64,000 bases of DNA, taken from Coleofasciculus chthonoplastes F2-STO-03. GTDB lineage: Bacteria; Cyanobacteriota; Cyanobacteriia; Cyanobacteriales; Coleofasciculaceae. The DNA is taken from contig JAVJWO010000072.1 in assembly GCA_040222015.1 (NCBI GenBank), positions 1 through 64,000 of the forward strand, read 5' to 3'. A program made the position numbers and the translations under genes. Below are positions 4,201-35,800 of this stretch, one piece after another. Every line of letters begins with the position of its first letter. Position 1 is the stretch's first letter. The notes beneath the pieces are model-generated. The model worked only from the letters and a program-made list of their open reading frames with translations, made no database searches and was not told where the DNA came from.

Positions 4201-4358
4201 TGGGTTTCTTGCAAGTCTCTTTGCTGAAACGGTTGCGCCAGCATAGCAGTCAGATGGCATCGGGGTTTGTTCAATCTCGGTATAGTAAAGGTGAGTTACT
4301 GCGGGGCGCGTTGTTGACGATTAACGGGATTGCTGCGGGTATGCGGAATACAGGTTGA
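1254..4358 (+). CDS. ppc: Phosphoenolpyruvate carboxylase
   Basis: [29 protein letters not shown] and LRAIPWVF motifs, with C-terminal [10 protein letters not shown]. Confidence 0.99.
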
Positions 4359-4360
4359 TT

Positions 4361-4409
4361 GTCATTGGTCATTGGTCATTGGTCATTGGTCATTGGTCAT
4401 TGGTCGTTG
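4361..4409. repeat. STRR heptamer tandem repeat (GTCATTG)n
   Basis: Six perfect copies plus one degenerate copy directly after the ppc stop. Confidence 0.95.
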
Positions 4410-4590
4410 TAGGGGCGACCCGCCTGCACTAATGAACAACACCAATAAACTCAATTGGATCGGGTCGCCCTCAACTGGCGCGGCACGGCTAAAATTGTGG
4501 AATAGATATTACCATTGAATCGGGCGCACGTCGGTGCGCCCCTACGGTGGAAAAGGTTGTAGGTTGGGTTGACGATAGGAAACCCAACAC
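4409..4590. repeat. Cluster of GTAG-type palindromic (REP-like) elements
   Basis: GTAGGGGCGACCCG..CGGGTCGCCC (second copy near 27490-27554); GGGCGCAC..GTGCGCCCCTAC; GTAGGTTGGGTT..AACCCAAC (related copy inverted at 48002-48030). Confidence 0.85.
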
Positions 4591-4617
4591 AAATGACCCA
4601 GCCAATACTCTAGACTT

Positions 4618-5793
4618 ATGCTCCAAGAAATCAATATAGAAAACTACAAATCCATTCAAAAGCTAAAGTTAGGCTTGGGGCGTGTAACTGTATTAATCGG
4701 TGAAAATGGTTCGGGTAAAAGTAATATACTCGAAGCGATCGCTTTAGCCTCAGCCGCTGCAAATGATAAATTAGATAATGAATTCTTGTTTTCAAGGGGC
4801 ATCAGGGTTACCAACCCGGAATATATGCGTTCAGCTTTCGATAAAGAGCAGATTACACAAGGTATAAAAATCAATTTTTACGGGGAAAATTCAGATTTTA
4901 AATTTGGTTATGTCCTTCAAAATAACAATCAACCCTATTCTTCATGGTTGATAGAAAAAGTAGATATAGATGTTGATAAAGAAACAGGAGAAAAAATTGT
5001 CAATAGTGAAATACAACGTTATATAAATCACCTTCAGAGAAATCTGTTGAGGGATGAAGTCATTGATTTCAACGCCATTGATGCTTTAATGGTAAAAGAA
5101 AAAATAATTCTACCAAAAACAATCAAACAAATAGGATTGAATCTTTTTTTGATTTACTCTCCAGAAAATTCTGCGTTGAGACAGTTTGAGAAAGAAGGGC
5201 AAATTCAACCACTAGGAATTAAGGGCGAAGGATTATTTAAACTCCTCAAAGTATTGAGTTTAGATCAAATTAAAATTAATGAACTCAAAGAAAAACTAAG
5301 ACTACTGTTTTGGTTTGAGGATTTCACCATTCATTCCGACTTCCTTGATAGTGAAAAAAGCCTGAAGACAAAAGATAGATATTTAGATCCCGACTTATCT
5401 GCCTTTGACCAAAAAAGTGCAAATGAAGGGTTTTTGTTTTTATTATTTTACTTTGCGCTTTTTATTAGTGACGATACACCGCGTTTTTTTGCAATAGATA
5501 ATATTGACGCTTCGCTGAACCCCAAATTATGCAGCCAGTTAATGCGAGAGTTAGTCCAGTTAGCCAAAAAGTATGATAAGCAATTTATCGTTACCACCCA
5601 TAATCCAGCAATTTTAGATGGATTAGACTTAGATGATCCGGAGCAACAACTCTGGGTTATTTACCGGAATAAATTTGGACATACCAAAGCTAGACCCGTT
5701 GAAAAGCCCACTCCTCTGGAAGGACAAGATCCGGTAAAATTATCAGAAGCATTCATGAGAGGCTACATCGGCGGACTTCCGAAAAATTTCTAG
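4618..5793 (+). CDS. AAA_21/AbiEii-like ABC-type ATPase
   Basis: IENYKSI start, Walker A GENGSGKS, FAIDNIDASLNP and TTHNP H-loop; AT-rich. Confidence 0.9.
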   Translation: MLQEINIENYKSIQKLKLGLGRVTVLIGENGSGKSNILEAIALASAAANDKLDNEFLFSRGIRVTNPEYMRSAFDKEQITQGIKINFYGENSDFKFGYVLQNNNQPYSSWLIEKVDIDVDKETGEKIVNSEIQRYINHLQRNLLRDEVIDFNAIDALMVKEKIILPKTIKQIGLNLFLIYSPENSALRQFEKEGQIQPLGIKGEGLFKLLKVLSLDQIKINELKEKLRLLFWFEDFTIHSDFLDSEKSLKTKDRYLDPDLSAFDQKSANEGFLFLLFYFALFISDDTPRFFAIDNIDASLNPKLCSQLMRELVQLAKKYDKQFIVTTHNPAILDGLDLDDPEQQLWVIYRNKFGHTKARPVEKPTPLEGQDPVKLSEAFMRGYIGGLPKNF

Positions 5794-5794
5794 T

Positions 5795-6084
5795 ATGACG
5801 ACTTTTGGCTTGATAGCAGAAGGCATAACTGATCAAGTGGTTATTGAAAATATTTTAATCGGGTATTTTAATAATCCTGATATTGTGGTTAACCCCCTGT
5901 TACCTCTCAGGGATGAAACCGATAAAAACAGAGTTGAAAATTATAGCAATTGGTTAAAAGTATTTGACTATTGTGCTTCTAGCAAATTTAAAGAAGCGTT
6001 TCAATCCGAAATCCCAGCCTAAAGATTTTTGTAGAAGGAATTCAGGCGAAAAATATTGTTATAGACGATGACCTATTTGAATAG
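5795..6084 (+). pseudogene. Probable internally deleted partner gene of the ATPase (TOPRIM-like IAEGITD start)
   Basis: The 75-aa ORF stops at 6022. A different frame (6010-6084) reads NPSLKIFVEGIQAKNIVIDDDLFE*, which looks like a C-terminus and suggests deletion with frameshift. Confidence 0.6.
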
Positions 6085-6344
6085 AATGTCCCAGACTTCA
6101 TTTAGGTTCGTAGTAGGCACTTTAGTGCCATAAGCGACTATTTTGCCCCCTCAATTCCTGAGACTTAAGTTTCATGTATCACATTCCCCAGTATGAATTT
6201 GTGACAGATGTTAATCAGAGGCACTTCAGCTTTCAGTTGACACTCATAAATGATATTATAGTCCTAACGAATTAATTATCCCTGAGCTATTAGCGGGATA
6301 CCCCTACTATCTAATTGTATCGAGTTAAATTAGAAAATACAAAA

Positions 6345-7295
6345 GTGACGACAGAAAAATATACCCAACGTGATGTCAAACGTCCAACCACAGCAGAAGT
6401 TGTTTGTTTTGGTTCGCTCATGGCTATGGAGTTACTCGTCATTGATGAATGGCCCCAACGAAATTTTGGCGGTCTATTTAAGGAACAACGAGATAGTTTG
6501 GGACAAGATGCCGCCATGATTGCCACAATGTTGCGCGGGTGGGATATTCCCAGTGGTTTGATTGGTTCAGCCTTGGGGAAAGACTATCGAGGACGATGGC
6601 TGGCAGAACACCTTAAATCTAGTGGGGTTTTGGGTGAAGTGCGCTTCGATTCGCAACTGCCAACCACACTGGTGGTCTTAATTTCAGATGCTATGGGGGG
6701 TCGTACTTACTTTTGGCAACCAGATAAAAGAGTATTAGCGACGTTAGATACGGCTGATTTGTCTCTGTTAAATGGAAGCCGTCTCCTGTATGTCGATTGG
6801 TATGACGAAGATCACATTCTCCGTCCTATGGATGAAGCCATTAAACTCAATATTCCTGTCTTTTTAAACCTGGAACATTTGCACGAAGATCCCGATATTT
6901 TAACCCGATATGCGGGACGGGCGACGATTTGTCAAGCCATCACAGATTCTGCCCAACGGGGTGATCAATCGCCTTTAGCGGTAGCCCAGACTTTGCTGGA
7001 TGCGGGTGTAAAAACAGCGCTGATCACGTTAGCGGGAGAAGGATGCTTGGTCGTACAGGAGCAGAATGCGATTCGGGTTCATGCTCCCTCAATTCAGGCA
7101 ATTGATTCATTTGGTGCAGGTGCTACGTTCTCGGCAGGTTTTATCTACGGCTATCTCCAGGGGTGGAGTTTGGAGACAATGGCACGGTTTGCGACAGCTA
7201 CAGCTTCGATCAAATGTAGTCGTGTGGGACTTGAACCGCCTGATTTGATGGAAAGCCAAACCTTAGCAGAACAACTTCAAGTGGACTATCTTTAG
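6345..7295 (+). CDS. PfkB/ribokinase-family kinase (atypical)
   Basis: VVCFGS N-terminus, LITLAGEG and DSFGAGATFSAGFIYG signature, with the canonical GAGD Asp replaced by Ala. Start is uncertain (GTG 6345 or TTG 6315). Confidence 0.85.
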   Translation: MTTEKYTQRDVKRPTTAEVVCFGSLMAMELLVIDEWPQRNFGGLFKEQRDSLGQDAAMIATMLRGWDIPSGLIGSALGKDYRGRWLAEHLKSSGVLGEVRFDSQLPTTLVVLISDAMGGRTYFWQPDKRVLATLDTADLSLLNGSRLLYVDWYDEDHILRPMDEAIKLNIPVFLNLEHLHEDPDILTRYAGRATICQAITDSAQRGDQSPLAVAQTLLDAGVKTALITLAGEGCLVVQEQNAIRVHAPSIQAIDSFGAGATFSAGFIYGYLQGWSLETMARFATATASIKCSRVGLEPPDLMESQTLAEQLQVDYL

Positions 7296-7363
7296 TAAGA
7301 AGGGAATAGGGAATAGGGAATTGGCTTTGCCTATTCTTCTATTGCCCATTCCCCATTTCCTAA

Positions 7364-8833
7364 TTAAAACTTATGGACTTTTTTAGTCATCAATTTTCCT
7401 TGGCTGGAAAATATCTCCACCGTCAATCCATCTAAATCCACGGTGACTCGTGTGAACAGATCAACGGAAACCACTGGACTGGCTTCAGCTAACTCGTAAC
7501 GGTGAGTTGAAAGCGTGACCAATTTACCCTCCATCTGGAAATGTTTCGCTTGCCTGTGAATCAGGGGCCAAGACAAACCTGAAGAGATAACCGAAATTAT
7601 TTTAAAATCAGGCTTCTCCTGACACCGTAATTCAGCACTCATGCCACAAGCGACATCTCCAGCTAAAAAGACGACTCGTTTGATATCATGGTCGAAAATT
7701 AAATCGAGCAGTTCTGTACGTTGCTTTAGGAAGCCGCCCCATTTGTCTGAATCGAGTCCCTCTCCAGACAACTTATCTGGAAAAAAGGGAATGGACGTCA
7801 TCACACATTTGACCCGATCTGAACCATCACATAACCAGGCTTTTAAAGCCTCCATTTGTGCCGAGCTTAACATGGCACGGGTTTCTGTCGTATCACCTAA
7901 CTGCCGTTCTGTGCGACAGTCTAGGGCGAAAAAGTCACAACAACCATCCTGAAAGGTGTACCACAGGCGGCAATTCCCCCAGAAGCCACTATACCGTTCT
8001 CGTTCATCCTGTTCAAGTGCAGGGAATAAGGGACCATGGCTCATTTGGTAGGTTTCATAGGCTTGAAGTGCGGCTGGATAAACAAGTTGCCATTCTTTGT
8101 CCCCAGCATTACGGGGCCAATTGTCCAGGATATCATGGTCATCCAGGGTCATGTAGGTGGGGACTTGTGCCATCAGTTGCCGCACATTGGGTTGAGAAAA
8201 GGTGGTTCGATAGCGGTCAAAATATCGCTCAACGGTTAAGTCAGCATCCGTGACTTCCTCGAAGTTATCGTCAGCATAAATTTGGTCACCCACTAAAAGA
8301 AACGCATCGGTGGCAATCCCTTGCTCAATTTGTTGATTAATTGCCGCAAAGGTTTGCTCCCCATCCTCTACATATCGCCATACTCCGGGCGCTAGTCGCT
8401 GCATATAACGGCAGGCTCCATAGACAAAGGAACGAGGACGCTGGGGATCATTACTTCCGGATTTAAAACGTTGTTGATTAGCTTTTGACCAGTCTATTTT
8501 TAGTTGTGAATCGGGTTCATCTTCACAGACAAACCAACCCATTTGATACTCATAGTCGGTTTCTGGTTTGAGTCCGGTAAACGTGACGACGCCAGACATA
8601 TCAAAATTCGGATTCATTTTAAAGAATTGGGGCGGCTGAAACTCTGACTCTCCCACGGCACGGATACGAGCTACACCAAAACAGGGTTGAAACAGTTGAT
8701 GGGTTTGCACACCCCACCCTGGGGGTAACGCATGAGGTGATGGCAGATATTCAGCCCGTCCAAATATACGAGCGCTTTGGTCAGTCACATGTCCGAGAAT
8801 GGGTCCAACGGTTAGCGGTTTTAATTGAATCAT
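7364..8833 (-). CDS. PhoD-family alkaline phosphatase/phosphodiesterase, no signal peptide
   Basis: GPILGHVT, GDQIYADD, LDDHDILDNW, LDCRTER, DKWGGF and LAGDV motifs. Confidence 0.85.
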   Translation of the reverse strand: MIQLKPLTVGPILGHVTDQSARIFGRAEYLPSPHALPPGWGVQTHQLFQPCFGVARIRAVGESEFQPPQFFKMNPNFDMSGVVTFTGLKPETDYEYQMGWFVCEDEPDSQLKIDWSKANQQRFKSGSNDPQRPRSFVYGACRYMQRLAPGVWRYVEDGEQTFAAINQQIEQGIATDAFLLVGDQIYADDNFEEVTDADLTVERYFDRYRTTFSQPNVRQLMAQVPTYMTLDDHDILDNWPRNAGDKEWQLVYPAALQAYETYQMSHGPLFPALEQDERERYSGFWGNCRLWYTFQDGCCDFFALDCRTERQLGDTTETRAMLSSAQMEALKAWLCDGSDRVKCVMTSIPFFPDKLSGEGLDSDKWGGFLKQRTELLDLIFDHDIKRVVFLAGDVACGMSAELRCQEKPDFKIISVISSGLSWPLIHRQAKHFQMEGKLVTLSTHRYELAEASPVVSVDLFTRVTVDLDGLTVEIFSSQGKLMTKKVHKF

Positions 8834-8918
8834 GGTGTGTATTTGTAATGATGGTTGTTGATTCTATTTTCAGATGGCAGCTAAAGTGTCAAGATATTTG
8901 ATCGTAACGTTGATGTTT

Positions 8919-10400
8919 TTATCGGAAATGGTTAGCCAGTTTTACTTCAACAAACTTTGTGCTAGGTTGTTGGATTAATACATCAGCATAATTGCAGATT
9001 AATTGCCAAGCCTGCTTAACATGATTTCGATCGGTTTGGGCTTGACCAATTGACAGACGTAAGGTGAGTTTATGATTGAGTCGGGTTGGGCTTAAGTAGA
9101 GTTTTCCGGAGGCATTTAGATGCTGGATGAGTGCCTGATTCACGGAGTCGCCACCCTTGAGTCGAAAGCAAACTAAATTAAGGGGAGGATCGACAACTAA
9201 CTCAAAGCGTGGATCAGAGTTGACCCATTGGGCAAACTCTTGGGCTAAGGCAACATGTTTGCGAATATAATGTTGTAAACCTTCAATCCCATAATGGCGA
9301 ATCACAAACCACAACTTGAGGCTTTTGAAGCGGCGAGCGAGGGGAATCTGCCAGTCTCGATAGTCAATCACCTGTCCAGATTCCGTGGCTTCATTTTTCA
9401 GGTAGTCTGGCATGATCGAGAGGGCTTGAACTAATTTTTCCCGATGTTTGACATAGAAGCAATTACAGTCAAAGTTTGTCATCATCCATTTATGGGGATT
9501 GAAGCAATAGCTATCAGCTTGTTCTAATCCCTGGTGAATCCAGCGGAACTCTGGACATAAAGCAGCGGTACCACTCATGGCTGCATCTACATGGAACCAG
9601 AGGTGATACTCTTGCGCGATCGCTCCCAGCTTTGCGATCGGGTCAATTCCGTTGGAGGAGGTGGTTCCCACGGTTGCGGCTAAGTAACAGGGAATCAAAT
9701 CGGCTTGGATATCGGCTTCAATACACTGTTGCAGCGCTTCTTTCCGCATCGCATAATACTCATCCACCTCAATTAAACGCACGTTTTCCGGACGCAACCC
9801 AACAATCTTTGCGGCTCTTTCAATGGAGCAGTGCGCTTCTTTTGACGTGTACGCCACCAACCGATTAATATCAGCTTGAGTTTGTTCTCTGGCGGCGATA
9901 AGAGAAACCACAGCCGCGCTACAAGCTGAATCTTGCAGTACACCTCCCCCAGTTTCTGAGGATTTAAAGTGGGAGGGTAATCCCAACATATCAACCAGCC
10001 AGTCGAGTACATGGGTTTCTAGCTCCGTACAAGCGGGAGAGGCTGCCCACAAAAATCCTAACACCCCCATCCCCGCACTCATTAATTCTCCTAAAATTGA
10101 GGGAGCAGAAGCACCCGCTGGAAAAAAGGCAAAAAAGTTAGGCGATTGCCAGTGCGTTAATCCCGGCACAATGATCTGATCAATATCTTTTAAAATTGCA
10201 TCAAATGATTCACCGGTTTGGGGGGCAGCATCGGGCAAGTTAGCTCTAATCTCTCCGGGTTTAACTTGAGATAGAACGGGTAAATCCTCTACAGTCTGCA
10301 TGTAGTTAGCGATCCAATCAATTGTTTGATATCCCCAATGGCGAAATTCCTCTGGGGACATGTGATAGTTGATTTCTTTCATGGTAATTTCCTCAGTCAT
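8919..10400 (-). CDS. PLP-dependent group II decarboxylase, aromatic-L-amino-acid decarboxylase-like
   Basis: THWQSPNFFAFFP, SPACTELE, HVDAA, NPHKW (PLP Lys) and DWQIPLARRF. Confidence 0.93.
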   Translation of the reverse strand: MTEEITMKEINYHMSPEEFRHWGYQTIDWIANYMQTVEDLPVLSQVKPGEIRANLPDAAPQTGESFDAILKDIDQIIVPGLTHWQSPNFFAFFPAGASAPSILGELMSAGMGVLGFLWAASPACTELETHVLDWLVDMLGLPSHFKSSETGGGVLQDSACSAAVVSLIAAREQTQADINRLVAYTSKEAHCSIERAAKIVGLRPENVRLIEVDEYYAMRKEALQQCIEADIQADLIPCYLAATVGTTSSNGIDPIAKLGAIAQEYHLWFHVDAAMSGTAALCPEFRWIHQGLEQADSYCFNPHKWMMTNFDCNCFYVKHREKLVQALSIMPDYLKNEATESGQVIDYRDWQIPLARRFKSLKLWFVIRHYGIEGLQHYIRKHVALAQEFAQWVNSDPRFELVVDPPLNLVCFRLKGGDSVNQALIQHLNASGKLYLSPTRLNHKLTLRLSIGQAQTDRNHVKQAWQLICNYADVLIQQPSTKFVEVKLANHFR

Positions 10401-10418
10401 TCAATAACAGGATTTTAT

Positions 10419-11771
10419 TCAGCCGACTCTTGTACTTAGATTTAATTCCAATCCCTCATCCTGTTTTAGCGTTGAAGGCACATATAGAGCTAAGGTAATT
10501 GCTCTGATCACCATAAACACTAATAACCCCAACCACAACAGATGAACATTCTCAAACTGCCACGCCGCAATCACTAAAGGAACAAATCCGATAAAGAACG
10601 CGGCGAGGATGCCATTTCGCAGGACAAACATTTGAGTTAAGCCCAAAAAATATCCCTCTAACATATAGACAAAGCCCACCATTACTAACACAGGCAATAG
10701 CCATAAAACATAGTCATTAATTTGGTCAATTACCTCTAAATGATTGGTTAATAAGCCAAACATTTTTTCGGGAAAGGAAATAAAAACCAATGCCAGAGCT
10801 AATCCTAAACTCAAGCTCGTTCCCCCAGACAAGCGCAGTAGGGGAAGCAACTTCTCGTGGCACCCCTCACCGTGAAAATTTCCAGCTAAGGTTTCCGTCG
10901 CAAATGCTGAACCCTCAATTAAAAATACGGCGAGATTGACCACTTCCACCATTAAACTGTTACCCGCTAAAACGACGGTTCCCAGAAAACCACTCAAGCT
11001 CGCAAAGAGCGCAAACGTTGTAATTGTTCCCAGCGAGCGGATCAATACATCGAGATTCATCTGAAATGTGGCTTTTAGCGCCACGGGGTCAAAAATTTGT
11101 CTGGCTACGGCTGGTAATTTTTGCAAATAACCATCTCCAGCTATCAGTATTAGCGCTAAAACGAACATCACATACTGACTAATTGCCGTTGCTGCACCTG
11201 CTCCCGCACTATTCCATCCCCACTGGACAATAAATAAGTAATCTAAAACAATATTGGTGCCATTGCTAATAATGGATAGAGCTAGCACTTTCTTACTCTG
11301 AGATTGCCCTAAAAACCAACCGATTAGCACGAGATTAGATAAAGCTGCGGGTGCTGCCCAAATCCGGGTATTGTAGTAGTCTCTCGCAGCTACTTTTACC
11401 TCTGGTGCAGCACTGAGCAGAGTAAAACCGAGTTCTCTAATGGGGTAATGTAAGAGTAGAATAATTGCCGCAACCATGAGTGCGACTAAACCGTTTCGCA
11501 ACAAGATTAATAACACAGCCTCGTTGTCTGAACGTCCCACTGCCTGAGCCGTTGAACCAGTCGTTGCCATGCGTAAAAACTTACAAGTGCGGTAAAGGTA
11601 ATCGAAAAGAATGACCGCAATAGCGACTCCCGCTAGATAGCGAATATCCGTTAAATGTCCTAAAAATGCTAAATCAACTAACCCGACTAACGGAACAATA
11701 ATATTGGAGATAATGTTAACAACTGTGAGTTTAGTAAAACGAGAGCTAATCTGAAAATCTGTTTCCTGCAT
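10419..11771 (-). CDS. MATE family efflux transporter (DinF-like)
   Basis: PLVGLVDLAFLGHL and FLRMATTG motifs with about 12 hydrophobic segments. Confidence 0.93.
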   Translation of the reverse strand: MQETDFQISSRFTKLTVVNIISNIIVPLVGLVDLAFLGHLTDIRYLAGVAIAVILFDYLYRTCKFLRMATTGSTAQAVGRSDNEAVLLILLRNGLVALMVAAIILLLHYPIRELGFTLLSAAPEVKVAARDYYNTRIWAAPAALSNLVLIGWFLGQSQSKKVLALSIISNGTNIVLDYLFIVQWGWNSAGAGAATAISQYVMFVLALILIAGDGYLQKLPAVARQIFDPVALKATFQMNLDVLIRSLGTITTFALFASLSGFLGTVVLAGNSLMVEVVNLAVFLIEGSAFATETLAGNFHGEGCHEKLLPLLRLSGGTSLSLGLALALVFISFPEKMFGLLTNHLEVIDQINDYVLWLLPVLVMVGFVYMLEGYFLGLTQMFVLRNGILAAFFIGFVPLVIAAWQFENVHLLWLGLLVFMVIRAITLALYVPSTLKQDEGLELNLSTRVG

Positions 11772-12350
11772 ATTATAATTTAAAGGGTCTTACTGTTATT
11801 TGACCGCTGTTTAGATATAATTTGAATCTAATTAAATAAATATTAGAGTGCAAACAGGATAGAAACACCTGAAAATTGAAAATCAGTTCTGATCCTCTAC
11901 TCCCCTGGGGACAAGGAGGTGATCAGTAACTTTTTCCGTCATGCACTAGTAGAGGAAACACTGCAAAAATCTGATGTTTTACCGATAAATAATAGATGTG
12001 AGTCTTGATTCAATTACTCACTAAACAGATTTCACGTTTCATCAGTAATTTTTGTTCAAAAAGCTGGTATCAATTTAATTTTTTACTAAACCTTAACTTT
12101 CATTTAACTGTAGCATTGCATATTCACAACGTCTAGGGAAAAAACATATATTTTTTTTATGTTAAAATCAAGTTTATTAGGATATTCATATACTAAAAAT
12201 CGTACTTTATTGTGTAATACGTGATATGTTAATGATTTACCCAATTTGAAATAGCTTTGCGAGCGCCAAAGCTAAATAACCTAAAATGGTGGAATAGATT
12301 TTACGGTTAAATCTGGCGCACGTCAGTCATCCGTGTCAACTTAAGACACA

Positions 12351-12377
12351 GTAGGGGTTTGGTTACCAAACCCCTAC
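12351..12377. repeat. Perfect GTAG palindrome
   Basis: GTAGGGGTTTGGT-T-ACCAAACCCCTAC abutting the PAP2 stop. Confidence 0.9.
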
Positions 12378-13099
12378 TATACGGATGGTATAGTCTCCTC
12401 TTTCTCAAGTCGTCGCTGACTCCGATGGGGTCTAATCAGCAAACAGACACCAACCGCCCAAGCAATGGATGCCATCCAACCGGCAATAATATCACTGGGG
12501 TAGTGAACCCCTAAATACATCCGAGTCCAACCGATCGCGATCGCAAACACGATACTCCCAATCACAACCAGCCAACGCCAACGGGTATTCCACGTCAAAA
12601 TAATTAATACAATCGCAAAAGTCATGCTTCCCATCGCATGTCCACTGGGAAACGCATAATCAAATTCTGGCGCCGGGGATTCCCAAAGGTTAGGGCGCAC
12701 TCGCTGGAGAACTAATTTCGCCGTGCGATTGATAATCACACTCCCTAATAAAGTTATCAGTGCATAGGTGAGTAATCGCCACTGGCGTCGGAATGCCAAG
12801 AACAGTACTATCGCTACAGATAAGGGCAATACCCCCCAATAGGCACCGAACTTCGTCAGGGTTATCGCAAACGCATCAAGTTGAGGGGACGCTGTTGAGT
12901 GAATCGCTAATAAAATTGGCACATCCCAAGGAAAACCCCCTTCCTTTTCCCAAACCTCTTCGGCTAGTTCTCCGAAGATTTGCAGGGGGAAATAAACACC
13001 CAGAAATAAGACAACCAGAGAACGCCAATGGTGGATCAGTAATTTGCTCAGAAATTTAAAAAATGATTGAATACGCTTTGAGAGTTCATAAATAGACAT
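12377..13099 (-). CDS. PAP2 family membrane phosphatase
   Basis: K..RVRP, FPSGH and TRMYLGVHYPSD motifs. Start is probably ATG 13099 (ORF extends to 13189). Confidence 0.93.
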   Translation of the reverse strand: MSIYELSKRIQSFFKFLSKLLIHHWRSLVVLFLGVYFPLQIFGELAEEVWEKEGGFPWDVPILLAIHSTASPQLDAFAITLTKFGAYWGVLPLSVAIVLFLAFRRQWRLLTYALITLLGSVIINRTAKLVLQRVRPNLWESPAPEFDYAFPSGHAMGSMTFAIVLIILTWNTRWRWLVVIGSIVFAIAIGWTRMYLGVHYPSDIIAGWMASIAWAVGVCLLIRPHRSQRRLEKEETIPSV

Positions 13100-13236
13100 T
13101 AAACCTGCGAAATGTGACTGTGTACAACTTAAAAAAAATGGCGACTTCCTCAAAAGTCTGATTATCCCACATCTGAGGACAAAGGACATAAAGAAATTAT
13201 TTATCCCTCATCCTTATACATACATTTAAAATTAGG

Positions 13237-13365
13237 TCAGGGCGGTTTTTGATTCAACGTTATCATCAATGGCAAAACGAAAGTCCCTAAACTAGCCCAG
13301 TGGTAGGGGCGGGTTTAGTCAAATCTGGGTCTAAAAGAAACGATAGTTGTAAAACCCGCCCCTAC
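13237..13365. repeat. Two adjacent long REP-doublet (REPIN-like) hairpins
   Basis: GGGCGG(G)TTT..about 36-40 nt..AAACCCGCCCCTAC family (first copy degenerate). Other copies at 24695, 24759, 40663, 43630, 50158, 50245, 53315, 55543 and 57810. Confidence 0.9.
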
Positions 13366-13395
13366 AACCTTCAACAATCAAAAGGCTTGTATCTC

Positions 13396-13731
13396 TCATC
13401 GAACAGATACATTTTCTGAAATCCACTGTAAATAAGCCTGAGATCCAGCAATAATCGGCAGGGCAATAATTTCGGGAACCTCGTAACTATGCAACTCCTG
13501 AATTTTGGCAGCTAACTGGTCAAATAGAGATAAATCTGTTTTGATCACCAATTGCCACTCTTGGTCACGATTCACCTTTCCATCCCAGGTATAAATCGAT
13601 CGCACGGGTGTAATACTGACACAAGCTGCCATCCGCCCTTCCACTAAGGATGAAGCGATCGCGTCTGCTTCTTCTTTTGACGTTGCCGTTACCAAGACTA
13701 CACCATAGCTAGAGGTTGATGTCTTTTCCAT
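13396..13731 (-). CDS. cutA: Divalent cation tolerance protein CutA
   Basis: AACV, SIYTWDG and HSYEVPEII motifs. Confidence 0.95.
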   Translation of the reverse strand: MEKTSTSSYGVVLVTATSKEEADAIASSLVEGRMAACVSITPVRSIYTWDGKVNRDQEWQLVIKTDLSLFDQLAAKIQELHSYEVPEIIALPIIAGSQAYLQWISENVSVR

Positions 13732-14083
13732 AGAACCATTCCTCTGTTCCTACGCCTGGTTCATTGTATCAATTCACCCGAAAAAAATATATAGTTACAC
13801 GAGATGATCGTGCGATCGCGGAGTATCTATATCAGAGGTAGGAATAGTACCTCGTGGATAAATCATCCTTTAGCAGGTAGCGTTAATTCCACGTTTTCTG
13901 CTATTGAAACAGGCATTCCTCGTTCCCTATTCTCTCTCACTAAGGGAATTCTCAAAAGCATTATGCTGTTGGCAAAAGCCTGTAACCTCAGAAAACGCCC
14001 AACCCGTTACCGCTACGGTTTAAGCGGCGCGAGAATGGATTCAATTGCTACAGAAGAGTTGACAGGTAGACAATTTTTACTAA

Positions 14084-14104
14084 TTGTAGTATTGTATAAT
14101 ACAA
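14084..14104. promoter_or_regulatory. 21-bp palindromic operator overlapping a TATAAT -10 box, NrtR-box-like
   Basis: TTGTA-GT-ATTGTAT-AA-TACAA upstream of kptA; TATAAT at 14095-14100. Confidence 0.5.
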
Positions 14105-14226
14105 AGTGGCATAGTCCTCACCCATGAGGGTGAACCCATTGATCTGACTCAGACTCAAGGCAACGTTAGCCAACCATTGTTTAGGGTTAGCGAAACTATT
14201 CTTAAAAGCTATTGATTCAATCAACC

Positions 14227-14772
14227 ATGAACTCTACCCGCCTGGTTAAAATTAGCAAATATCTCAGCAAACATCTGCGGCATCAACCCGAACGGATTGG
14301 GTTAACCTTAGAACCAGGGGGTTGGGTCAACGTTAATCAACTTCTATCTGCTTGTAAACAGTATTCCTTTCCTCTTACTCTCAATGAACTTAAAGAAGTC
14401 GTCGCCAACAATGATAAACAACGCTTTTCCTTTGATGCGACAGAAACTCGGATTCGTGCCAATCAAGGACATAGTGTCGCGATTGATTTACAGTTAGAAC
14501 CAACCCTTCCACCAGAGGTACTCTACCACGGTACAGGTCACCGAACTGTGGAAGCGATTCGGCATCAAGGCTTATGTAAAATGTCACGGCATCACGTCCA
14601 CTTATCGCCGGATATCGCCACCGCCAAAAAAGTAGGACAGCGTCATGGCCGTCCGGTGGTTTTGGCTGTCGATGCTAAAGCCATGTCTGAAAAAGGTCAT
14701 ACATTCTACTGTTCCGAAAATGGGGTGTGGTTAGTGAATTTTGTTCCCCCTAAATATCTACAGCAACTCTAA
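14227..14772 (+). CDS. kptA: RNA 2'-phosphotransferase (Tpt1/KptA)
   Basis: LSKHLRH, NDKQRF, IRANQGHS, LYHGT and RHHVHLS motifs. Confidence 0.96.
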   Translation: MNSTRLVKISKYLSKHLRHQPERIGLTLEPGGWVNVNQLLSACKQYSFPLTLNELKEVVANNDKQRFSFDATETRIRANQGHSVAIDLQLEPTLPPEVLYHGTGHRTVEAIRHQGLCKMSRHHVHLSPDIATAKKVGQRHGRPVVLAVDAKAMSEKGHTFYCSENGVWLVNFVPPKYLQQL

Positions 14773-14809
14773 TCCGCCAGGAGTCTCCAACTCAGCAGGA
14801 AAAATAGTG

Positions 14810-16015
14810 ATGAATTCAGAACAGGTTTGGTCTCAAGAAAATTCTCATCAGAATAATCGGCAAGCGAAAGGGTTATTGGGGTTAGGCTGGCGTCCTTTAT
14901 CCCGGCAGTTTGATTTGGATTTCATTTTACATTTGTTGCAAAATGACACATCAGAGTTATTGCAAAATACTCTAGATTTTACCAGTGATGTGGCTGATGC
15001 ATTAGGGCGAAATCACTATAATATTTTTGCCAATGTTTTGAGCTTATTTTCCGAAAATATGCGTTATGAGTGGGATGAGTTCTGGGAATACATTACCCCT
15101 GACCCGCCAGCCCCCAATCATTCTCAGGGGGAGACGATATTCGTCAATACACCCGTCACCCAAACGGTTACCCGTGAGAGTATTCCGATTGAGTATGTCC
15201 TGAATCGACTGCAAGAAGTCACTTTATTTAAAGTCTTAGATATTCTGGGCAGTCCCGATTTAATTACTCAAGATTACATGGATCGCCGCTTTTATTATCC
15301 CCTGGAAAAGTTTGCCAATTGGCAACGCTTAGACGTTTTTGGCACAGTCTATGCCTACTGGTCTAATCCCGAAATTTGGTTACAAATCAATAACCAGGGT
15401 CAAGGACGGCGCTGCTACAGTTTAATGGCGGATGAAATTCGACCTTTAGTGAATAAAGCGACCTATAATGTAGCCGTGATGCTGAGTGGCTATCAAAGTC
15501 GGGTGGGACAGGTTCACAGTCAGTTTCAGATTAGAGATTTTCCCAACGATATTCAACGGTTTACGGATACCGTTCAGCAGGCAATTCTGGATCAAAATCA
15601 GTTAGCAATTGTGGTGCATGGTGAACCGGGAACCGGGAAAACGGTATGGACACAAGCGGTGGCAAAAGAAATTCTTGTACCGTTGGGGTATACTATTTTT
15701 ATTCTGGATCATGATGCGGTAGAAAATTTTGTACCGCCGAGTTATTTGGAACGAGTTGCCCTAATTATTAACGAAGCGGATAACTTAGCCAAAAATCGAG
15801 CTAGTGAAGTGGCGCAATGGAATAATAAAACGGAGCATATTCTCAGTTTGCTGGATGGAACGTTATATCAGAGTGTGATTGATGACACCGGAATTAAAGC
15901 GCAGCAAAAATTAGTGGTATTAATGACTTGTAATACCACAGAACGCTTCGACCCGGCGATGTTACGTAAAGGACGAGTGGATTTGACCTATGAGTTTATG
16001 CATCGATTTGTGTAA
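14810..16015 (+). CDS. AAA+ ATPase with uncharacterised N-terminal domain
   Basis: Walker A GEPGTGKT, Walker B-like LIINEAD and SRH TCNTTERFDPAMLRKGRVD. Confidence 0.88.
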   Translation: MNSEQVWSQENSHQNNRQAKGLLGLGWRPLSRQFDLDFILHLLQNDTSELLQNTLDFTSDVADALGRNHYNIFANVLSLFSENMRYEWDEFWEYITPDPPAPNHSQGETIFVNTPVTQTVTRESIPIEYVLNRLQEVTLFKVLDILGSPDLITQDYMDRRFYYPLEKFANWQRLDVFGTVYAYWSNPEIWLQINNQGQGRRCYSLMADEIRPLVNKATYNVAVMLSGYQSRVGQVHSQFQIRDFPNDIQRFTDTVQQAILDQNQLAIVVHGEPGTGKTVWTQAVAKEILVPLGYTIFILDHDAVENFVPPSYLERVALIINEADNLAKNRASEVAQWNNKTEHILSLLDGTLYQSVIDDTGIKAQQKLVVLMTCNTTERFDPAMLRKGRVDLTYEFMHRFV

Positions 16016-29752: not shown

Positions 29753-29886
29753 ATCGTGCGTTACGCTTCGCTCTCCCCACCCTTCTCTCTATAGATGGTG
29801 TAGCTGCGTAAGTCCCCAAGCATTGCCAATTGAAGTGAAGATTGAGTATAATCAGGCAATTGCTCAGAAAAATCGGAGCAGTTTCC

Positions 29887-32800
29887 ATGTTTAAGTGGTG
29901 CCGGATTCCATTTCCCTCCTGGTTTTGGCTGATTATCGCCCTCGTAGACGGGCAAGCTCATCCCCTCAACGCCCAATCGATAACAGCCGAACCGGATGGC
30001 ATGGGTACAATTGTCACGATTGATGGAGAGCAGTTTAACATTTCAGGTGGCTCTTTATCCGGGGATGGCAGCAATCTATTCCACAGTTTCGATGATTTTG
30101 GGCTAGATGCCAATCAAGTGGCGAACTTTTTGTCCAATCCCCAAATTCAGAACATTTTAGGGCGCGTGGTTGGCGGAAATGCTTCCATTATCAATGGGTT
30201 AATTCAGGTGACTGGCGGCAACTCTAATCTTTATTTAATCAACCCATCGGGGTTTATTTTTGGCGAGAATGCCAGTCTGAATGTACCGGGAAGTTTTACC
30301 GCAACGACAGCCAATGGGATTGGGTTTGATAGCGGCTGGTTTAATGCGGTGGGGGATAGTAACTATCAGGTGTTAACAGGTTCTCCCAATCAGTTTACCT
30401 TTGGTACACAGCTAGGGGCGATTATTAATGCCGGGGATTTAGCCGTAACCGAGGGGCAGAATTTAACTTTACTGGGAAGTACAGTAGTGAATACCGGAGC
30501 AATCACTGCACCAGGAGGAAATATTACCATTGCGGCTGTTCCGGGGGAGAATTTAGTCCGGATTAGTCAACCGGGAAACCTGTTGAGTTTGGAAATTGCA
30601 CCGATTGAGGATAGTACGGGACAACTGTTACCGGTGAGTCCCTTGGATTTAGCCGCATTGCTGACAGGAGATGGCAGCGAAACTGTGGAAACCGGGTTGA
30701 GTGTTACCTCAAATCAACAGGTGCAGTTAGCTGAATCTGAGGTGGAGATACCGACTGATAGGGGAGTGGTTGTGGCATCGGGTAGTCTGGATGCATCCGG
30801 TGAAATGGGTGGTACGGTTAATGTGTTGGGTGAGACAGTTAGTTTAATTGATGCCGATATTAATGCATCTGGGGTCAATGGCGGTGGCGTAATTCGTATT
30901 GGTGGCGATGAGCAGGGTCAGGGACTTGTCCCTAATGCTCAGTTTACTATTGTTGATGCCAATACGATAATTAATGCCAATGCCTTGACTCAAGGCAATG
31001 GGGGTAGAGTCATTGTTTGGGCAGATCATACTACAGATTTTTCTGGCACAATTACCGCACGGGGCGGCAATTTAGGGGGTGATGGCGGGTTTGCCGAAGT
31101 GTCGGGTGCAAATACGTTGCAGTATCAGGGGTTAACTGATTTAATTGCCCCGAATGGAACGACGGGGAATTTATTATTAGACCCCGCTACTTGGGTGATT
31201 GCTAATTCTGGGGGAGATATCACACCAGCCGACGTGGTAACTGCTCTGATGACGGCAAATGTGACTTATGATGCGACTGATTTTCTCACGGTTAGTGATG
31301 GGATTGATTCCAGTAGTGGTAACAATTTAACCCTGGATGCGCCGACGATTAATTTGGATGCGTCGATTAGTTTGACGGGTCAACTGATGGGGACAGCCAA
31401 CACTGTGAATGTGGGTACGGGTGGCTGGGTACAAAATGGGGTGGATGTCGCAGTAGATGGGGCAACAGTGAATCTGGCTGCGGGAGAGTTTATTGATCCC
31501 ACCACAATAGAGATTAACAAATCCCTAACGTTGATGGGTGCAGGGGCTGAGAATACAACGGTAAGTGGTGATAATACCCGTCAGGTGTTGAATATCTCTG
31601 GTGGGGATGTGACGTTAGATGGCTTAACTATTGCCAATGGAAATAATGCTGAGTTTGGTGCAGGCGTTTACTACAACGGTACAGGTACGCTGACGATAAC
31701 TAATGCTACCTTCTCTGGCAATAGTGCGATCGGTGGTGATGGTGGTGATGGCATCGACAGTGGTGGCGGCGGTGGTGGCGGTGCCGGACTTGGAGGGGGT
31801 ATCTTTTTCGACGGTGGTGGTACAGTTACGGTTAGCAACTCCACGTTTATTGGTAATCAAGCCATGGGCGGGAATGGCGGTAATGGCGACGGTAATTTCG
31901 GCGGGAATGGCAACGGCGGTATGGGCGGCGGTTCCTTTGGCGGTATGGGCGGGAATGGGGGTAATGGGGGTAATGGGGAATTCGGTGGCGGTGGTGGCGG
32001 CGGTAGCGGCAGCGGCGGGCAGAGTTTGGGCATCTCACTTAACAACGGTGGCGGATTCGGTGGTGGCAGTGGTGGCGGTTTATACGCCAGTTTGCAGAAT
32101 AGTCCCAGTGGTCCCGTTACCTTTTTAGGCAGCGGCAACAGCGGCGGCAAAGGCGGATTTGGCGGCGGCGGTGGCGGATTTGGCGGCGGATTTGGCGAGT
32201 TGTTGGGCGGCGGCGAAGGCGGTAGTGGTGGCGGTGGCGGCGGCGGTATGGGCGGCGCAATTTTTGTCAACTCTGGCTCAATTTCAGTAAGAGACAGCAC
32301 TTTCACTAACAACAACGCTACGGAGGGTAAAGGTGGTACAGGTGATTTTGATAATAGTAAAAACGGTCAAGGATTCGGTGGTGCAATTTTTATCAATACA
32401 GGAAATGCCGAACTGACCAATAGTACGATGAGCGACAACAGCGCCACTGACAATGGTGGTGGCATTTATAGCCGGAATGCCACAGTTAATCTCAGAAACA
32501 CGACGATTGAAAATCCTGGCAGTAGCGCGTTGCATGGTGGGACAGAAGAGCTTACCTTAACAGGAGATGAACTAGACATCACGGGTAGAATTTCTGGCAG
32601 CGGCAATCTAATCATTGAACCGGAAACCTTAAGCCAAAGTATTCAAATTGGGGGCACGGATAGCGGTGATACGACTATTTTGGATTTGAGTCAGACAAAA
32701 TTGAATCAAATTCAAGGAAGTTTTAACTTGATTACCATCGGACGTACTGACAGTACAGGCACAGTTACCATCAAGGATGACGCCAGCTTCAATAATTCCG

Positions 32801-35800
32801 TGAATATAGCCGGCGGGTCAACCTTGGTAGGCCCCAATCAAGAGACCATCTGGAACCTCACGGATACGAATCAAGGAAACCTGAATTCTATTTTTCCCAA
32901 TGAATTAACCTTCAGTAATATTGAAAACTTAATCGGTGGCACAGCCAATGATACCTTTGTCTTTAGTAGCGGTGTCAGATTCAATGGCAATTTAGATGGT
33001 GATGCCGGAAACCTGAGTCTCAGAGGCGATGAAATTGATGTCACAGGGACAATTTCTGGTAGTGGTAATCTAATTATTGAACCGGAAACCGCCAGCCAAG
33101 GGATTCAAGTTGGTGGCACAGATAGCGGCAGTACCACGATTCTCGATTTAACCGAGACAAAATTGAATCAAATTCAACCCGGTTTTAGCACGATTACTAT
33201 CGGGCGTACTGACGGCACAGGTACAGTTACACTCAAGGATGGCGTCACCATTAATCTTCCCGTGAATATAGCCGGTGGGTCAACGTTAGTCGGTCAAAAT
33301 CAAGACACCACCTGGAACATCACGGATGCGAATCAAGGAAACCTAAATTCTATCTTTGCTAATGGATTAAGCTTCAGCAATATAGAAAACTTAATCGGTG
33401 GCACAGCCAATGATACCTTTATCTTTAGTAACGGTGTCAGATTCAGTGGCAATGTGGATGGGGGTGCGGGAAACCTGAGTCTCAGAGGCGATGAAATTGA
33501 TGTCACGGGGACAATTTCTGGCAGTGGAACTCTCACCATTGAACCGGAAACCGTCAGCCAAGAGATTCAAATTGGTGGCACAGATAGCGGCAGTACCACG
33601 ACTCTCGATTTAACCGAGACAAAACTCAGCCAACTTCAAGGGAATTTTAGCACAATTACCATCGGCTCTCCTGATGGCACAGGCACGGTTACACTCAAGG
33701 ATGGCGTTAACTTTAATGCTCCCGTAACTCTAGCTGGTGGCTCAACATTGGTCGGCCAAAATCAAGACACCACCTGGAACATCACGGATACAAATCAAGG
33801 AAACCTAAATAATTCTACCTTGACCAATGGCTTAAGCTTCAGCAACATTGAAAACTTAATCGGTGGTACAGCCAACGATACCTTTACCTTTAGTAACGGT
33901 GCGACATTAACCGGAACAATTAATGACAGTGGTGGTACGAGTCTTCTCGACTACTCCAATACCTCCACCCCCCTGAGTGTAAACATAACGGGCATCGACC
34001 AATTTACGATTAATAACACCCTGACTGTCAATCAAGTCAGCAACATTGTGGGGAGTCGTGCCGATGATACTATTTTATTCAGTAACGGTGCCCAGTTCAG
34101 TGGCAATTTAGATGGGGGTGCAGGAAATCTGAGTCTCAGAGGCGATGAAATTGATGTCACAGGGACAATTTCTGGCAGTGGGAATCTACTCATTGAACCA
34201 GAAACCGCCAGCCAAAGCATTCAAATTGGTGGCAGCAATAGCACGACTTCTCTAGATTTAACCGCGACAAAACTCAGCCAAATCCAACCCGGATTTAGTG
34301 CGATTACCATTGGTAGAACTGATGGCAGTGGTGTGATTTATCTCGGCGGAAATACCGAGTTTAACCGTCCTGTTATCCTACAATCTCTGGGCGAGGGCGG
34401 TACAATTAACACCACAGGCGGTACACTCACTAATCCAAATGGCAATATTACCCTAGACGCCAATCAAACCATCACTACAGCAAATATTACTGCACCCGGT
34501 CAACAAATTAGCCTCACCAGTGAAAATGGCAGTATTGATACTAGCGTCGGTATTCTCAATGGCAGCAATATTACCCTCAACGCCAACCAAGGCATTACCA
34601 CCGCCGATATCACCGCATCGGAATCCATTAACCTCACCAGCGACAATGGCACCATTAATACCAACTCTGGCATCCTCAATGGCAGCAATATTACCCTAAA
34701 CGCCAATCAAGATATCACCACCGCCGATATCACCGCATCGGAATCCATTAACCTCACCAGTGACGATGGCGAGATTAATACCAGCACGGGCACCCTCAAT
34801 GGCAGCACTATTACCCTAAATGCTAATCAAGATATTACCACCGCAAATATTACCGCATCCGATTCAATTAACCTCACCAGCGATAATGGCAATATTAATA
34901 CTAGCGCGGGCATCCTGGATACCAGCAGTACCACCGGAAATGGTGGCAACCTAACTCTCAGAAGTCCCAACGGAGAAATCACCACCGATGATATTAATAC
35001 AAATGGCGCCACAGATGGCGGAGATATCACCATTGAAGCCCAAATTCAAATCACCACAGGCGCAATTAACTCCCAAGGTGAGACAGGCAAAGGCGGAAAT
35101 GTTACCCTTGATCCCGAAGGGGATATCCAAGTCACCTCAATTAACGCCGAAGGTGGCACCACTGGCGGTGACGTAGACATTACCACCGAAAGCTATTTCC
35201 GCGCCACCGAAAGCTTCAGCGCCGCCAATGGCACAGCCGCCAGCATTTCCACCATGGGTGGAGAAGAAGGCGGAGATATCATCATCCGTCATGGCGGATT
35301 TTTGGATAAAACCCCCTTCGATATCGGCAACGCCACCACCAACGGTACAATCGCCGCCATCACCAGTGGCGAGTTTACCCTGACTCCCTTGCAATCCTTC
35401 TCCTTCACTCATATCGAAGGAAACATTCAAATTCTGACAGGCTTAAATTCCCTCTCCGCTGATATCATTCAAAGCCTCGGTTTAGGCGAGAATATCAGTA
35501 TCAACGATGGCACCATGGCTGACGCCCTGAACACCGGATACACCTCCGCCCCCTCCCTGAAAATTATTGGTGCTGTCGATAGTAATACCAGTGGTAACGC
35601 TAGTGGGAATACCAGTGGTAACGCTAGTGGGAATACCAGTAATACTGACAATGCCAGCAATAGTACCACCCGTTATATTGAATCCCTCGAACAACTGCGA
35701 CTCAAAGAATTTGCTGATTATTTTGGTGAAGACTTCTCCCAATACTCGATTTCGCTCAATAGCATCCAAGATATCTTAAGGCAAATTCAACAACAAACTG

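Follow-up and report, generated by a model that had tools for sequence, protein, structure and literature searches.

Do four neighboring genes of unlike families in a cyanobacterial genome form one system, and if so, what would that system make? The question is raised by a 64,000-nucleotide stretch of Coleofasciculus chthonoplastes F2-STO-03 (contig JAVJWO010000072.1, positions 1 to 64,000), hereafter called the window, in which genes for a PfkB-like protein, a PhoD-like metallophosphoesterase, a group II aromatic amino acid decarboxylase (AADC), and a MATE efflux transporter lie side by side (Table 1). An earlier note made from the sequence alone had proposed that they constitute an undescribed biogenic amine pathway working by decarboxylation, reversible phosphorylation, and export. 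We found the four genes together as a unit in two cyanobacterial lineages that are far apart, and the view that the block is a genuine functional unit is well supported. The reading that we favor, and to which we would give an even chance, is that positions 6295 to 12231 are a small accessory specialized-metabolism cassette that makes and exports a modified aromatic amine and that has been inherited and moved as a block.

Co-occurrence of the four genes as a unit

All four genes were present in three of the nine genomes of the genus (G000, G001, and G008), with protein identities of 91 to 96% for the G001 and G008 copies. Comparison of the G001 locus (L088) with the window by blastn gave a single match of 5,997 columns (90.8% identity) over positions 6295 to 12231, and neither flank matched. 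Because G001 shares only this segment, the four genes and 460 bp of the AT-rich spacer form a discrete 5.9-kb block. In G001, this block is flanked by a cytochrome P450 gene and a GH9 gene on one side and by genes for an M48 peptidase, an IS200-like transposase, and an AIM24 protein on the other; in G008, the flanks are those of the window, minus positions 4595 to 6027. The block occupies two different chromosomal settings within the genus. The cassette ends showed no terminal repeats, either inverted or direct. Metagenome contigs carried the same block in full (L113) or in part (L112), and the best matches, both named Coleofasciculus by their source, were 97% (decarboxylase) and 99% (PhoD-like protein) identical.

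The four genes were found again in G284, a genome from another family of the order, at identities of 75% (AADC), 72% (PhoD-like), 71% (PfkB-like), and 65% (MATE). There they are contiguous and on one strand (L103, 8316 to 13971), in an order unlike that of the window, and are flanked by a TPR gene and a uracil phosphoribosyltransferase gene. A PhoD-like protein of the G284 type bears the source name Rippkaea orientalis PCC 8801. The conserved neighborhood that the proposal of the earlier note calls for was thus seen in G001, G008, and G284.

Two of the proteins are rare enough for their joint occurrence to be compared with chance. Among 401 genomes of the order, the PfkB-like protein was found in 5 (E ≤ 1e-20) and the PhoD-like protein in 10 (E ≤ 1e-60), so that about 0.12 genomes with both would be expected if they were independent (5 × 10/401). 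Both were present in four genomes, and in all four the genes were adjacent. Three of these genomes come from one genus, which leaves two independent lineages. The grouping exceeds chance. Among 61 relatives, the AADC occurred in five at an identity of at least 73%, a sixth match reaching just 30%, and the PhoD-like protein also occurred in five. The PhoD of the cluster type was present in 2 of the 401 genomes of a phylum-wide sample, in which no additional one was found.

These counts bear on one alternative, namely that unrelated genes were juxtaposed by chance on a piece of DNA that later spread within one genus. Such an origin would fit the position of the block in a hot spot with strain-variable content and the lack of transposon ends marking it. 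However, G284 has members of these four families side by side in a different order and in other surroundings, four genomes with both rare proteins were observed instead of 0.12, and three of the proteins have matching clades. We consider a chance juxtaposition highly improbable.

Close relatives of the individual proteins were usually found without the others. None of 80 loci of close decarboxylase relatives (59 to 76% identity; 4 cyanobacterial, the rest mostly from Acidobacteriota and Chloroflexota), examined with up to 10 kb on each side where the contig permitted, held relatives of the other three proteins (tblastn, E ≤ 1e-5), and 77 of 80 PfkB-like loci were likewise without partners. Two solitary decarboxylase copies were seen in a neighboring genus (G032 and G009), and the solitary PhoD-like homologs L096, L097, L104, and L105 had no partner gene in common. 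The sequences of the PhoD-like proteins P0127 and P0128 and of the PfkB-like proteins P0248 to P0250 (63 to 72% identity) suggest that further lineages may carry the cassette.

The arrangement of the genes agreed with the description given in the earlier note. The coordinates of the open reading frames (ORFs) confirmed three co-oriented genes separated by 18 bp (MATE to AADC, 10401 to 10418) and 85 bp (AADC to PhoD-like, 8834 to 8918). The AT-rich region upstream of the MATE gene, which the note had put at roughly 500 bp, is part of a 605-bp spacer (11772 to 12376) with a GC content of 0.28 to 0.37 in 300-bp windows, compared to 0.40 to 0.50 within the genes; its portion inside the block common to G001 has a GC content of 0.28 to 0.34. 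The convergence on the PfkB-like gene is also correct, the ends of the PfkB-like and PhoD-like genes being 68 bp apart. Upon folding of positions 7285 to 7375, this spacer gave a hairpin of -26.6 kcal/mol (z, -2.87; 3 of 200 shuffles were as good), which was not picked up by a simple terminator scan. The proposed start of the PfkB-like gene at 6345 competes with a longer ORF of 326 amino acids that begins at a TTG (6315 to 7295). Since G001 has a TAG at the position of this TTG and since relatives start at the GTG of 6345 or later, this GTG is the better start. An Rfam scan of positions 5800 to 12600 (E ≤ 1) matched no riboswitch or other RNA family, and neither promoter-like sites (16 versus 13.3 ± 3.7) nor terminator patterns (6 versus 6.3) were more frequent than in shuffled sequences.

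Table 1. Position, strand, and character of the four-gene cassette and adjacent features in the window
Feature	Position	Strand	Characteristics
PfkB-like gene	6345..7295	+	GTG start, 316 aa; ribokinase fold without the catalytic Asp
PhoD-like metallophosphoesterase gene	7364..8833	-	489 aa; signal-less, GDVA for GDVH
Group II pyridoxal phosphate-dependent decarboxylase (AADC) gene	8919..10400	-	493 aa
MATE (DinF/GntT-like) efflux transporter gene	10419..11771	-	450 aa; subclade found with PfkB-like genes
Four-gene cassette	6295..12231	.	Bounds set by the blastn match to G001, of the same genus
Hairpin between convergent genes	7302..7353	.	Terminator-like for both genes
AT-rich region upstream of MATE	11772..12231	.	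Travels with the cassette; presumed promoter/regulatory region of MATE-AADC-PhoD
AAA_21 ATPase gene and RloB-like remnant	4618..6074	+	Neighboring island cargo, outside the cassette

The block was also present in RNA libraries. Contigs from all four metatranscriptome runs compared, of hypersaline-lake and marine origin and from one year, covered positions 6295 to 11761, including all four genes, at about 94% identity. They start exactly at 6295, and one contig of 3.7 kb spans the PfkB-like gene into the decarboxylase. As assembled contigs, they attest to presence in the RNA libraries and not to strand, level, a single transcript, or transcript ends. The cassette is apparently transcribed in hypersaline or marine mats. 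The flanks of the window itself were not covered by these contigs, since the cassette is bordered by other sequences in the organism of those runs.

The decarboxylase and the transporter

The decarboxylase matched the Pfam family Pyridoxal_deC (PF00282) with 397.7 bits (cut-off, 27) over the whole 375-position profile, and plant and human AADCs in the PDB over its full length (E values of 1e-135 to 1e-152). Lys304 (in NPHK), His190, and Tyr333 of the large loop are all present and aligned to catalytic residues. Tyr333 aligns with Y332 of human DDC and Y350 of PsTyDC; AtPAAS has a phenylalanine there. The preprint 10.1101/404970 sets out the roles of the small-loop His and the large-loop Tyr and associates a Tyr-to-Phe change with aldehyde synthases. 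Judged by these features, the protein is a true group II AADC, as the earlier note had stated, with a complete catalytic set. It would convert an aromatic amino acid into its amine.

At one position of the plant enzymes, Gly favors indolic and Ser phenolic substrates according to 10.1101/404970 (CrTDC 370 and PsTyDC 372). Ala355 of the window enzyme aligns with Ser372 of PsTyDC and Gly354 of human DDC. The residue is Ala in the window, G001, and G008 and Ser in G284. Among 121 sequences, 115 have Gly and six have Ala or Ser, and these six belong to one clade. The cluster-linked AADCs, among which P0006 was counted for its near identity to the G284 copy, are monophyletic (100/99) inside a cyanobacterial group, and this clade also takes in the further Ala355 enzymes P0048, P0054, and P0055 (FastTree support, 0.988). 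With Ala or Ser instead of the indole-favoring Gly, a phenolic substrate of the tyrosine or DOPA type is favored; the substrate preference has probably changed toward phenolic compounds, by a Gly/Ser rule that comes from plant enzymes and does not cover Ala.

A different change was seen among the close decarboxylase homologs, in 18 of 121 of which the catalytic loop Tyr is replaced by Phe (PEFLKN). They include G032, G009, L001 to L004, P0007, P0008, P0013, P0037, and P0044, and in a 32-sequence subset, every one of the Phe-loop homologs is a solitary cyanobacterial gene. By the plant Tyr-to-Phe rule, these proteins would not be decarboxylases but aromatic acetaldehyde synthases.

The transporter matched Pfam MatE (PF01554) in two stretches with 96.2 bits (cut-off, 24.9) and TIGR00797 with 225.5 bits (cut-off, 147.4), and it also passed the NCBIfam model of GntT (NF041358; 551.9 bits with a cut-off of 525). 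The earlier note had drawn an analogy to GntT of the guanitoxin cluster, and this analogy did not hold. Of 201 genomes of the order, 68 encode a protein that passes the GntT model, and the genome studied here has a second copy with a higher score. The 11 proteins scanned around the MATE gene matched none of the other guanitoxin models. GntI, moreover, is of the choline-kinase type and not a PfkB protein; a metagenomic neighbor matched the GntI model below its cut-off. A guanitoxin link was thus rejected, the model being unspecific and no other Gnt protein being matched among those scanned beside the MATE gene; as far as the sequence tells, the GntT name says only that the protein is a common cyanobacterial DinF-type MATE.

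The closest copies of this MATE adjoin PfkB-like genes, in G284 (65% identity) and at L115 (63%), while the second copy of the genome itself is only 46% identical. In a FastTree phylogeny, the MATEs of the window, G001, G008, and G284 grouped with that of L115, apart from 13 other GntT-like MATEs. MATE proteins typically export organic cations, and the cassette transporter would export the amine or a derivative of it from the cell.

Two tailoring candidates with altered catalytic motifs

The PfkB-like protein was assigned to Pfam PfkB (PF00294) with 84.9 bits (cut-off, 25.8). Its AlphaFold2 model (pLDDT, 88.2; pTM, 0.87) gave Foldseek matches with E values of about 1e-22, led by the acarbose kinase Mak1, ribokinase, and YdjH (TM scores of 0.74 to 0.78) and including ketohexokinase. 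The GXGD Asp is the catalytic residue of the PfkB family and NXXE its Mg site, as given in PMC5931981. In profile alignments, residues 267 to 270 of the window protein (P0004) read GAGA and align with GAGD of 3h49, 3hj6, and 3pl2 and with AAGD of 4x8f. The motif was found in 75 of 80 metagenome loci, with Ala at the Asp position in 74, Gly in one, and Asp in none. More than 1,676 matches were obtained at an E value of ≤1e-20, and in the ESM Atlas solely unnamed PfkB clusters were matched, most frequently in Chloroflexota. The Asp-less PfkB-like proteins are a large conserved subfamily and not a decaying gene.

To what chemistry might such a protein belong? We counted same-strand neighbors at 82 PfkB-like loci, many of them on short contigs. 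An MttB-superfamily methyltransferase was present at 54 and a DAO+GCV_T dehydrogenase of the dimethylglycine/sarcosine type at 48, followed by a GbcA-like Rieske oxygenase (21), a binding protein (20), a DeoR regulator (14), and a choline-kinase-like protein (13). In metagenomes (L131, L159, L132, L142, L151, L184, and others; around positions 4,600 to 14,900 of each), these genes recur as an operon that runs DeoR, (choline-kinase-like protein), DAO+GCV_T dehydrogenase, (GbcA-like Rieske oxygenase), Asp-less PfkB-like protein, MttB-like methyltransferase, a 312-amino-acid protein, permease, and binding protein. This operon looks like an undescribed catabolic pathway for methylated or quaternary amines, and nothing joining MttB and PfkB appeared among the matches listed in a literature search.

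Three small clusters of cyanobacterial type around the PfkB-like gene have different contents. The gene lies with an A-MT-T-R protein like a nonribosomal peptide synthetase (NRPS), a methyltransferase, and an SDR at L111 (G227:C91, 642 to 7899); with TauD, a CmcI-like methyltransferase, a hydrolase, an A domain, a PCP, a MATE, a sulfotransferase, and a strictosidine-synthase-like protein at L115 (2798 to 12650); and with a 2-oxoglutarate oxygenase and a methyltransferase at L116 (6876 to 9991). At the Calothrix-like locus L114, the neighbors were all housekeeping genes. Judged by gene content, the thread common to the PfkB-like settings is amine chemistry.

One could take these neighbors to mean that the cassette serves catabolism or detoxification, processing an aromatic compound that comes from outside or arises under stress (e.g., a phosphorylated or otherwise modified aromatic amino acid) and expelling the amine. 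Indeed, the main setting of PfkB-like genes outside cyanobacteria consists of methylated-amine demethylation genes with DeoR, a permease, and a binding protein, and the cassette sits in a variable island beside defense-type genes. However, it has no importer, no regulator, and no downstream amine-oxidizing gene, MATE proteins export, and the cyanobacterial relatives of the PfkB-like protein lie in biosynthetic-looking clusters (NRPS-like, methyltransferases, sulfotransferase). A catabolic role is in our view quite improbable.

The PhoD-like protein matched Pfam PhoD (PF09423) with 95.2 bits (cut-off, 27). Homologs of equal length align with its N terminus from the first residue onward, and the frame stays open for only 10 codons before the start. 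Because the open frame has just 499 codons, there is no room for a signal peptide, including one for twin-arginine translocation (Tat), which supports the cytoplasmic location given in the earlier note. The protein belongs to a widespread signal-less PhoD-like subfamily. As a single sequence, it is very distant from B. subtilis PhoD (2yeq; E value, 3e-4), and the family profile matched 2yeq with an E value of 3.3e-17 and aligned the DDHE and GDVH motifs.

The second of these motifs is altered in the cluster. GDVA is found in all cluster-linked copies (window, G001, G008, G284, and L113) and also in P0125 to P0128; GDVH is present in 116 of 120 homologs and in all four solitary cyanobacterial loci. 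Among the 120 homologs, GDVA is confined to the four matches with at least 70% identity. Since GDVA is both specific to the cluster and conserved, it suggests that the function changed on recruitment. The GDVH His would correspond to the Fe3+ histidine of purple acid phosphatases. PMC4223295 states the analogy of PhoD to the ligand set of these enzymes, and the Asp of GDVH corresponds to D436 of B. subtilis PhoD, the D436A mutation of which abolishes activity according to the same source. By motif reading and not by a tool alignment, C141, D183, and Y186 would be the Cys, Asp, and Tyr metal ligands.

The altered motifs bear on the scheme put forward in the earlier note. Taken literally, the amine would be made, phosphorylated by PfkB with ATP, dephosphorylated by PhoD, and exported by MATE, in a phospho-amine or pro-drug cycle. 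The linkage of the four genes in two lineages would agree with this, as would the ribokinase fold and the glycine-rich anion hole kept by the PfkB-like protein, the best structural match to Mak1, a kinase acting on a natural product, and the choline-kinase-like and methyltransferase genes that this family adjoins elsewhere. However, a kinase and a phosphatase acting on one ester in the same compartment would run a futile cycle, and known pro-drug phosphatases act outside the cell. Furthermore, the Asp that PMC5931981 names as catalytic is absent in 120 of 120 homologs, and the GDVH-to-GDVA change in the cluster PhoD adjoins an Asp that is essential in B. subtilis (D436A; PMC4223295). We regard the literal scheme as unlikely. 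Of the kinase assignment, the PfkB domain and the ribokinase fold stand and the GXGD catalytic Asp does not, none of the 120 homologs keeping it. Reversible phosphorylation is weakened by the lack of this Asp in the PfkB-like protein and of the GDVH His in the cluster PhoD, and the pro-drug or self-protection idea is not supported, given the same missing Asp and the cytoplasmic location of the phosphatase-like protein.

Alternatively, the AADC and the MATE could suffice, secreting a biogenic amine for signaling, pH, or allelopathy, with the PfkB-like and PhoD-like genes as passengers. The 18-bp gap between the AADC and MATE genes points this way, and so do the mostly solitary AADC homologs (0 of 80 loci with partners), the convergent orientation of the PfkB-like gene in the window, and the damaged look of the catalytic motifs in both tailoring candidates. 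However, G284 keeps all four genes intact at 65 to 75% identity despite reordering, with the PfkB-like gene inside a co-directional run. GDVA and GAGA are conserved and not decaying, every ORF is of full length, and a PfkB-like gene is again paired with a MATE gene in a third, distinct cluster (L115). That the AADC and MATE act alone therefore seems decidedly unlikely; the two other proteins could be passengers, but it is more likely that they perform an altered chemistry.

We thus return to the amine cassette that we favor. In it, the Asp-less PfkB-like and the His-less cytoplasmic PhoD-like protein would tailor the amine inside the cell, by a chemistry unlike that of the textbook kinase and phosphatase; this step is put forward with less confidence than decarboxylation and export. 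One possibility would be that a phosphoryl group is transferred, in an ATP-dependent manner, to a nucleophile for which no general base is required, such as a phenol, a phosphate, or a carboxylate, after which the altered PhoD-like enzyme would cleave or transfer. The more specific claim is a joint one and is offered tentatively, as possible but somewhat doubtful: that the cassette provides a new way to make and export a modified aromatic amine with two repurposed enzymes, a base-less PfkB-fold protein from a family otherwise tied to methylated-amine metabolism and a cytoplasmic PhoD-fold protein that lost an iron ligand on joining the cluster.

Several observations weigh against these proposals. 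Just two independent lineages were confirmed with gene context, and unrelated genes could conceivably be carried on a conserved fragment of an island. The block extends just 50 bp upstream of the PfkB-like gene of the window. The evidence from RNA libraries is compatible with DNA carry-over, and there is no silent control stretch of the same organism. At the position of the catalytic Asp, the 120 best PfkB-like homologs have Ala (117), Gly (2), or Thr (1). NXXE is not recognizable, and two registers are obtained, in which NETE of 4x8f aligns with R202-A-T-I and the motif of 3hj6 with V209-T-D-A; the invariant T210-D211 may substitute for it, and the protein may not be a kinase at all. Having lost a predicted metal ligand, the PhoD-like protein may be inactive or changed. 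Finally, the selectivity rule applied to the decarboxylase is plant derived, and Ala lies outside it. Overall, the sequences indicate that an undescribed small amine cassette is real, while its product and any phosphorylation chemistry remain putative.

Surroundings, significance, and comparison with known systems

The cassette lies next to cargo of another kind. The neighboring ATPase matched Pfam AAA_21 with 80.6 bits, and the window keeps just the two ends of the RloB-like gene, which is intact in G007 (220 amino acids). In G007, which lacks the block, the interval from the PAP2 gene to the phosphoenolpyruvate (PEP) carboxylase gene holds a CHAT-TPR protein and an AAA_21/RloB pair, and this island (L204, G007:C89, 2181 to 10619) also encodes two proteins that belong to no Pfam family. 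Neither arrangement is present in G008. Because its content differs among the window, G007, and G008, the PAP2-PEP carboxylase interval is a variable island.

Short dispersed repeats of about 45 to 150 bp occupy intergenic positions of the window (4354 to 4550, 6104 to 6136, 12281 to 12345, and 13228 to 13383). Dozens of copies, some in tandem arrays, are present in each of five genomes of the genus, and the repeats form very deep pile-ups among RNA-library contigs. Directly after the stop of the PAP2 gene, a perfect palindrome of 14+14 nucleotides (12350 to 12378) is terminator-like, and a CCCCTAC motif at the left edge of the cassette (6295 to 6311) is related to it. Further along, the window contains a very long ORF of 2,345 amino acids (29842 to 36879) and several of 850 to 915 amino acids.

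Small amine clusters are easily missed by genome mining aimed at genes for NRPSs, polyketide synthases, and ribosomally synthesized and posttranslationally modified peptides. This cassette is compact (5.9 kb) and conserved across two cyanobacterial families. Beyond the locus, a large PfkB subfamily without the catalytic aspartate lies consistently among genes for quaternary and methylated amines, and a predicted intracellular PhoD lineage has one branch whose metal site is altered; new enzymology could emerge from either finding. If the joint claim is true, both enzymes perform a chemistry not yet assigned to their families, and the wider PfkB-like subfamily, with over 1,600 homologs, is an unrecognized class of amine-directed enzymes. 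The Ala/Ser-for-Gly switch in the decarboxylase offers a direct handle on substrate choice.

Literature searches, with supplementary files outside their reach, found no description of this gene set, in agreement with the earlier note, in which it was not recognized as a described cluster. With the guanitoxin system, the cassette shares a MATE that passes the GntT model, without other gnt genes among the 11 proteins scanned. Other known systems couple an AADC genetically to a kinase-like enzyme or an amine transporter. In the psilocybin pathway, a decarboxylase and a kinase lead to a phosphorylated tryptamine, and lactic acid bacteria have tyrosine decarboxylase/antiporter operons. The likeness is one of analogy only: the kinase and transporter families are unrelated, the cassette has no hydroxylase or methyltransferase, and its kinase-like protein lacks the catalytic base. 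Pro-drug schemes of the streptomycin and acarbose type combine an active intracellular kinase with a phosphatase outside the cell.

At the level of the single proteins, the PhoD-like family shares the PhoD domain and the DDHE and GDVH motifs with B. subtilis PhoD (2yeq). Unlike this enzyme, which is extracytoplasmic according to PMC4223295, the PhoD-like protein has no Tat signal, and the cluster-linked copies have Ala in place of the GDVH His. The ribokinase/PfkB kinases, including those acting on natural products (Mak1, AcbK, YdjH, and ribokinase), have the same fold with a lid (TM scores of 0.74 to 0.78), and their glycine-rich anion hole and C-terminal nucleotide-binding segments align with the PfkB-like protein. 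However, the latter has GAGA and not GAGD, is just 12 to 23% identical, and, in the alignment to 4x8f, does not keep the ribose-binding Asn/Asp and GG-Lys positions of ribokinase. The decarboxylase resembles plant, animal, and bacterial AADCs (e.g., PsTyDC, 6eem; CrTDC, 6eew; human DDC, 3rbf), matching over its full length and sharing the pyridoxal phosphate-binding Lys and the loop His and Tyr with them. Nevertheless, it differs from them in carrying Ala355 (Ser in G284) where 115 of 121 relatives have Gly, and it differs from its relatives at all 80 other loci, which are without these partners, in belonging to a four-gene block.

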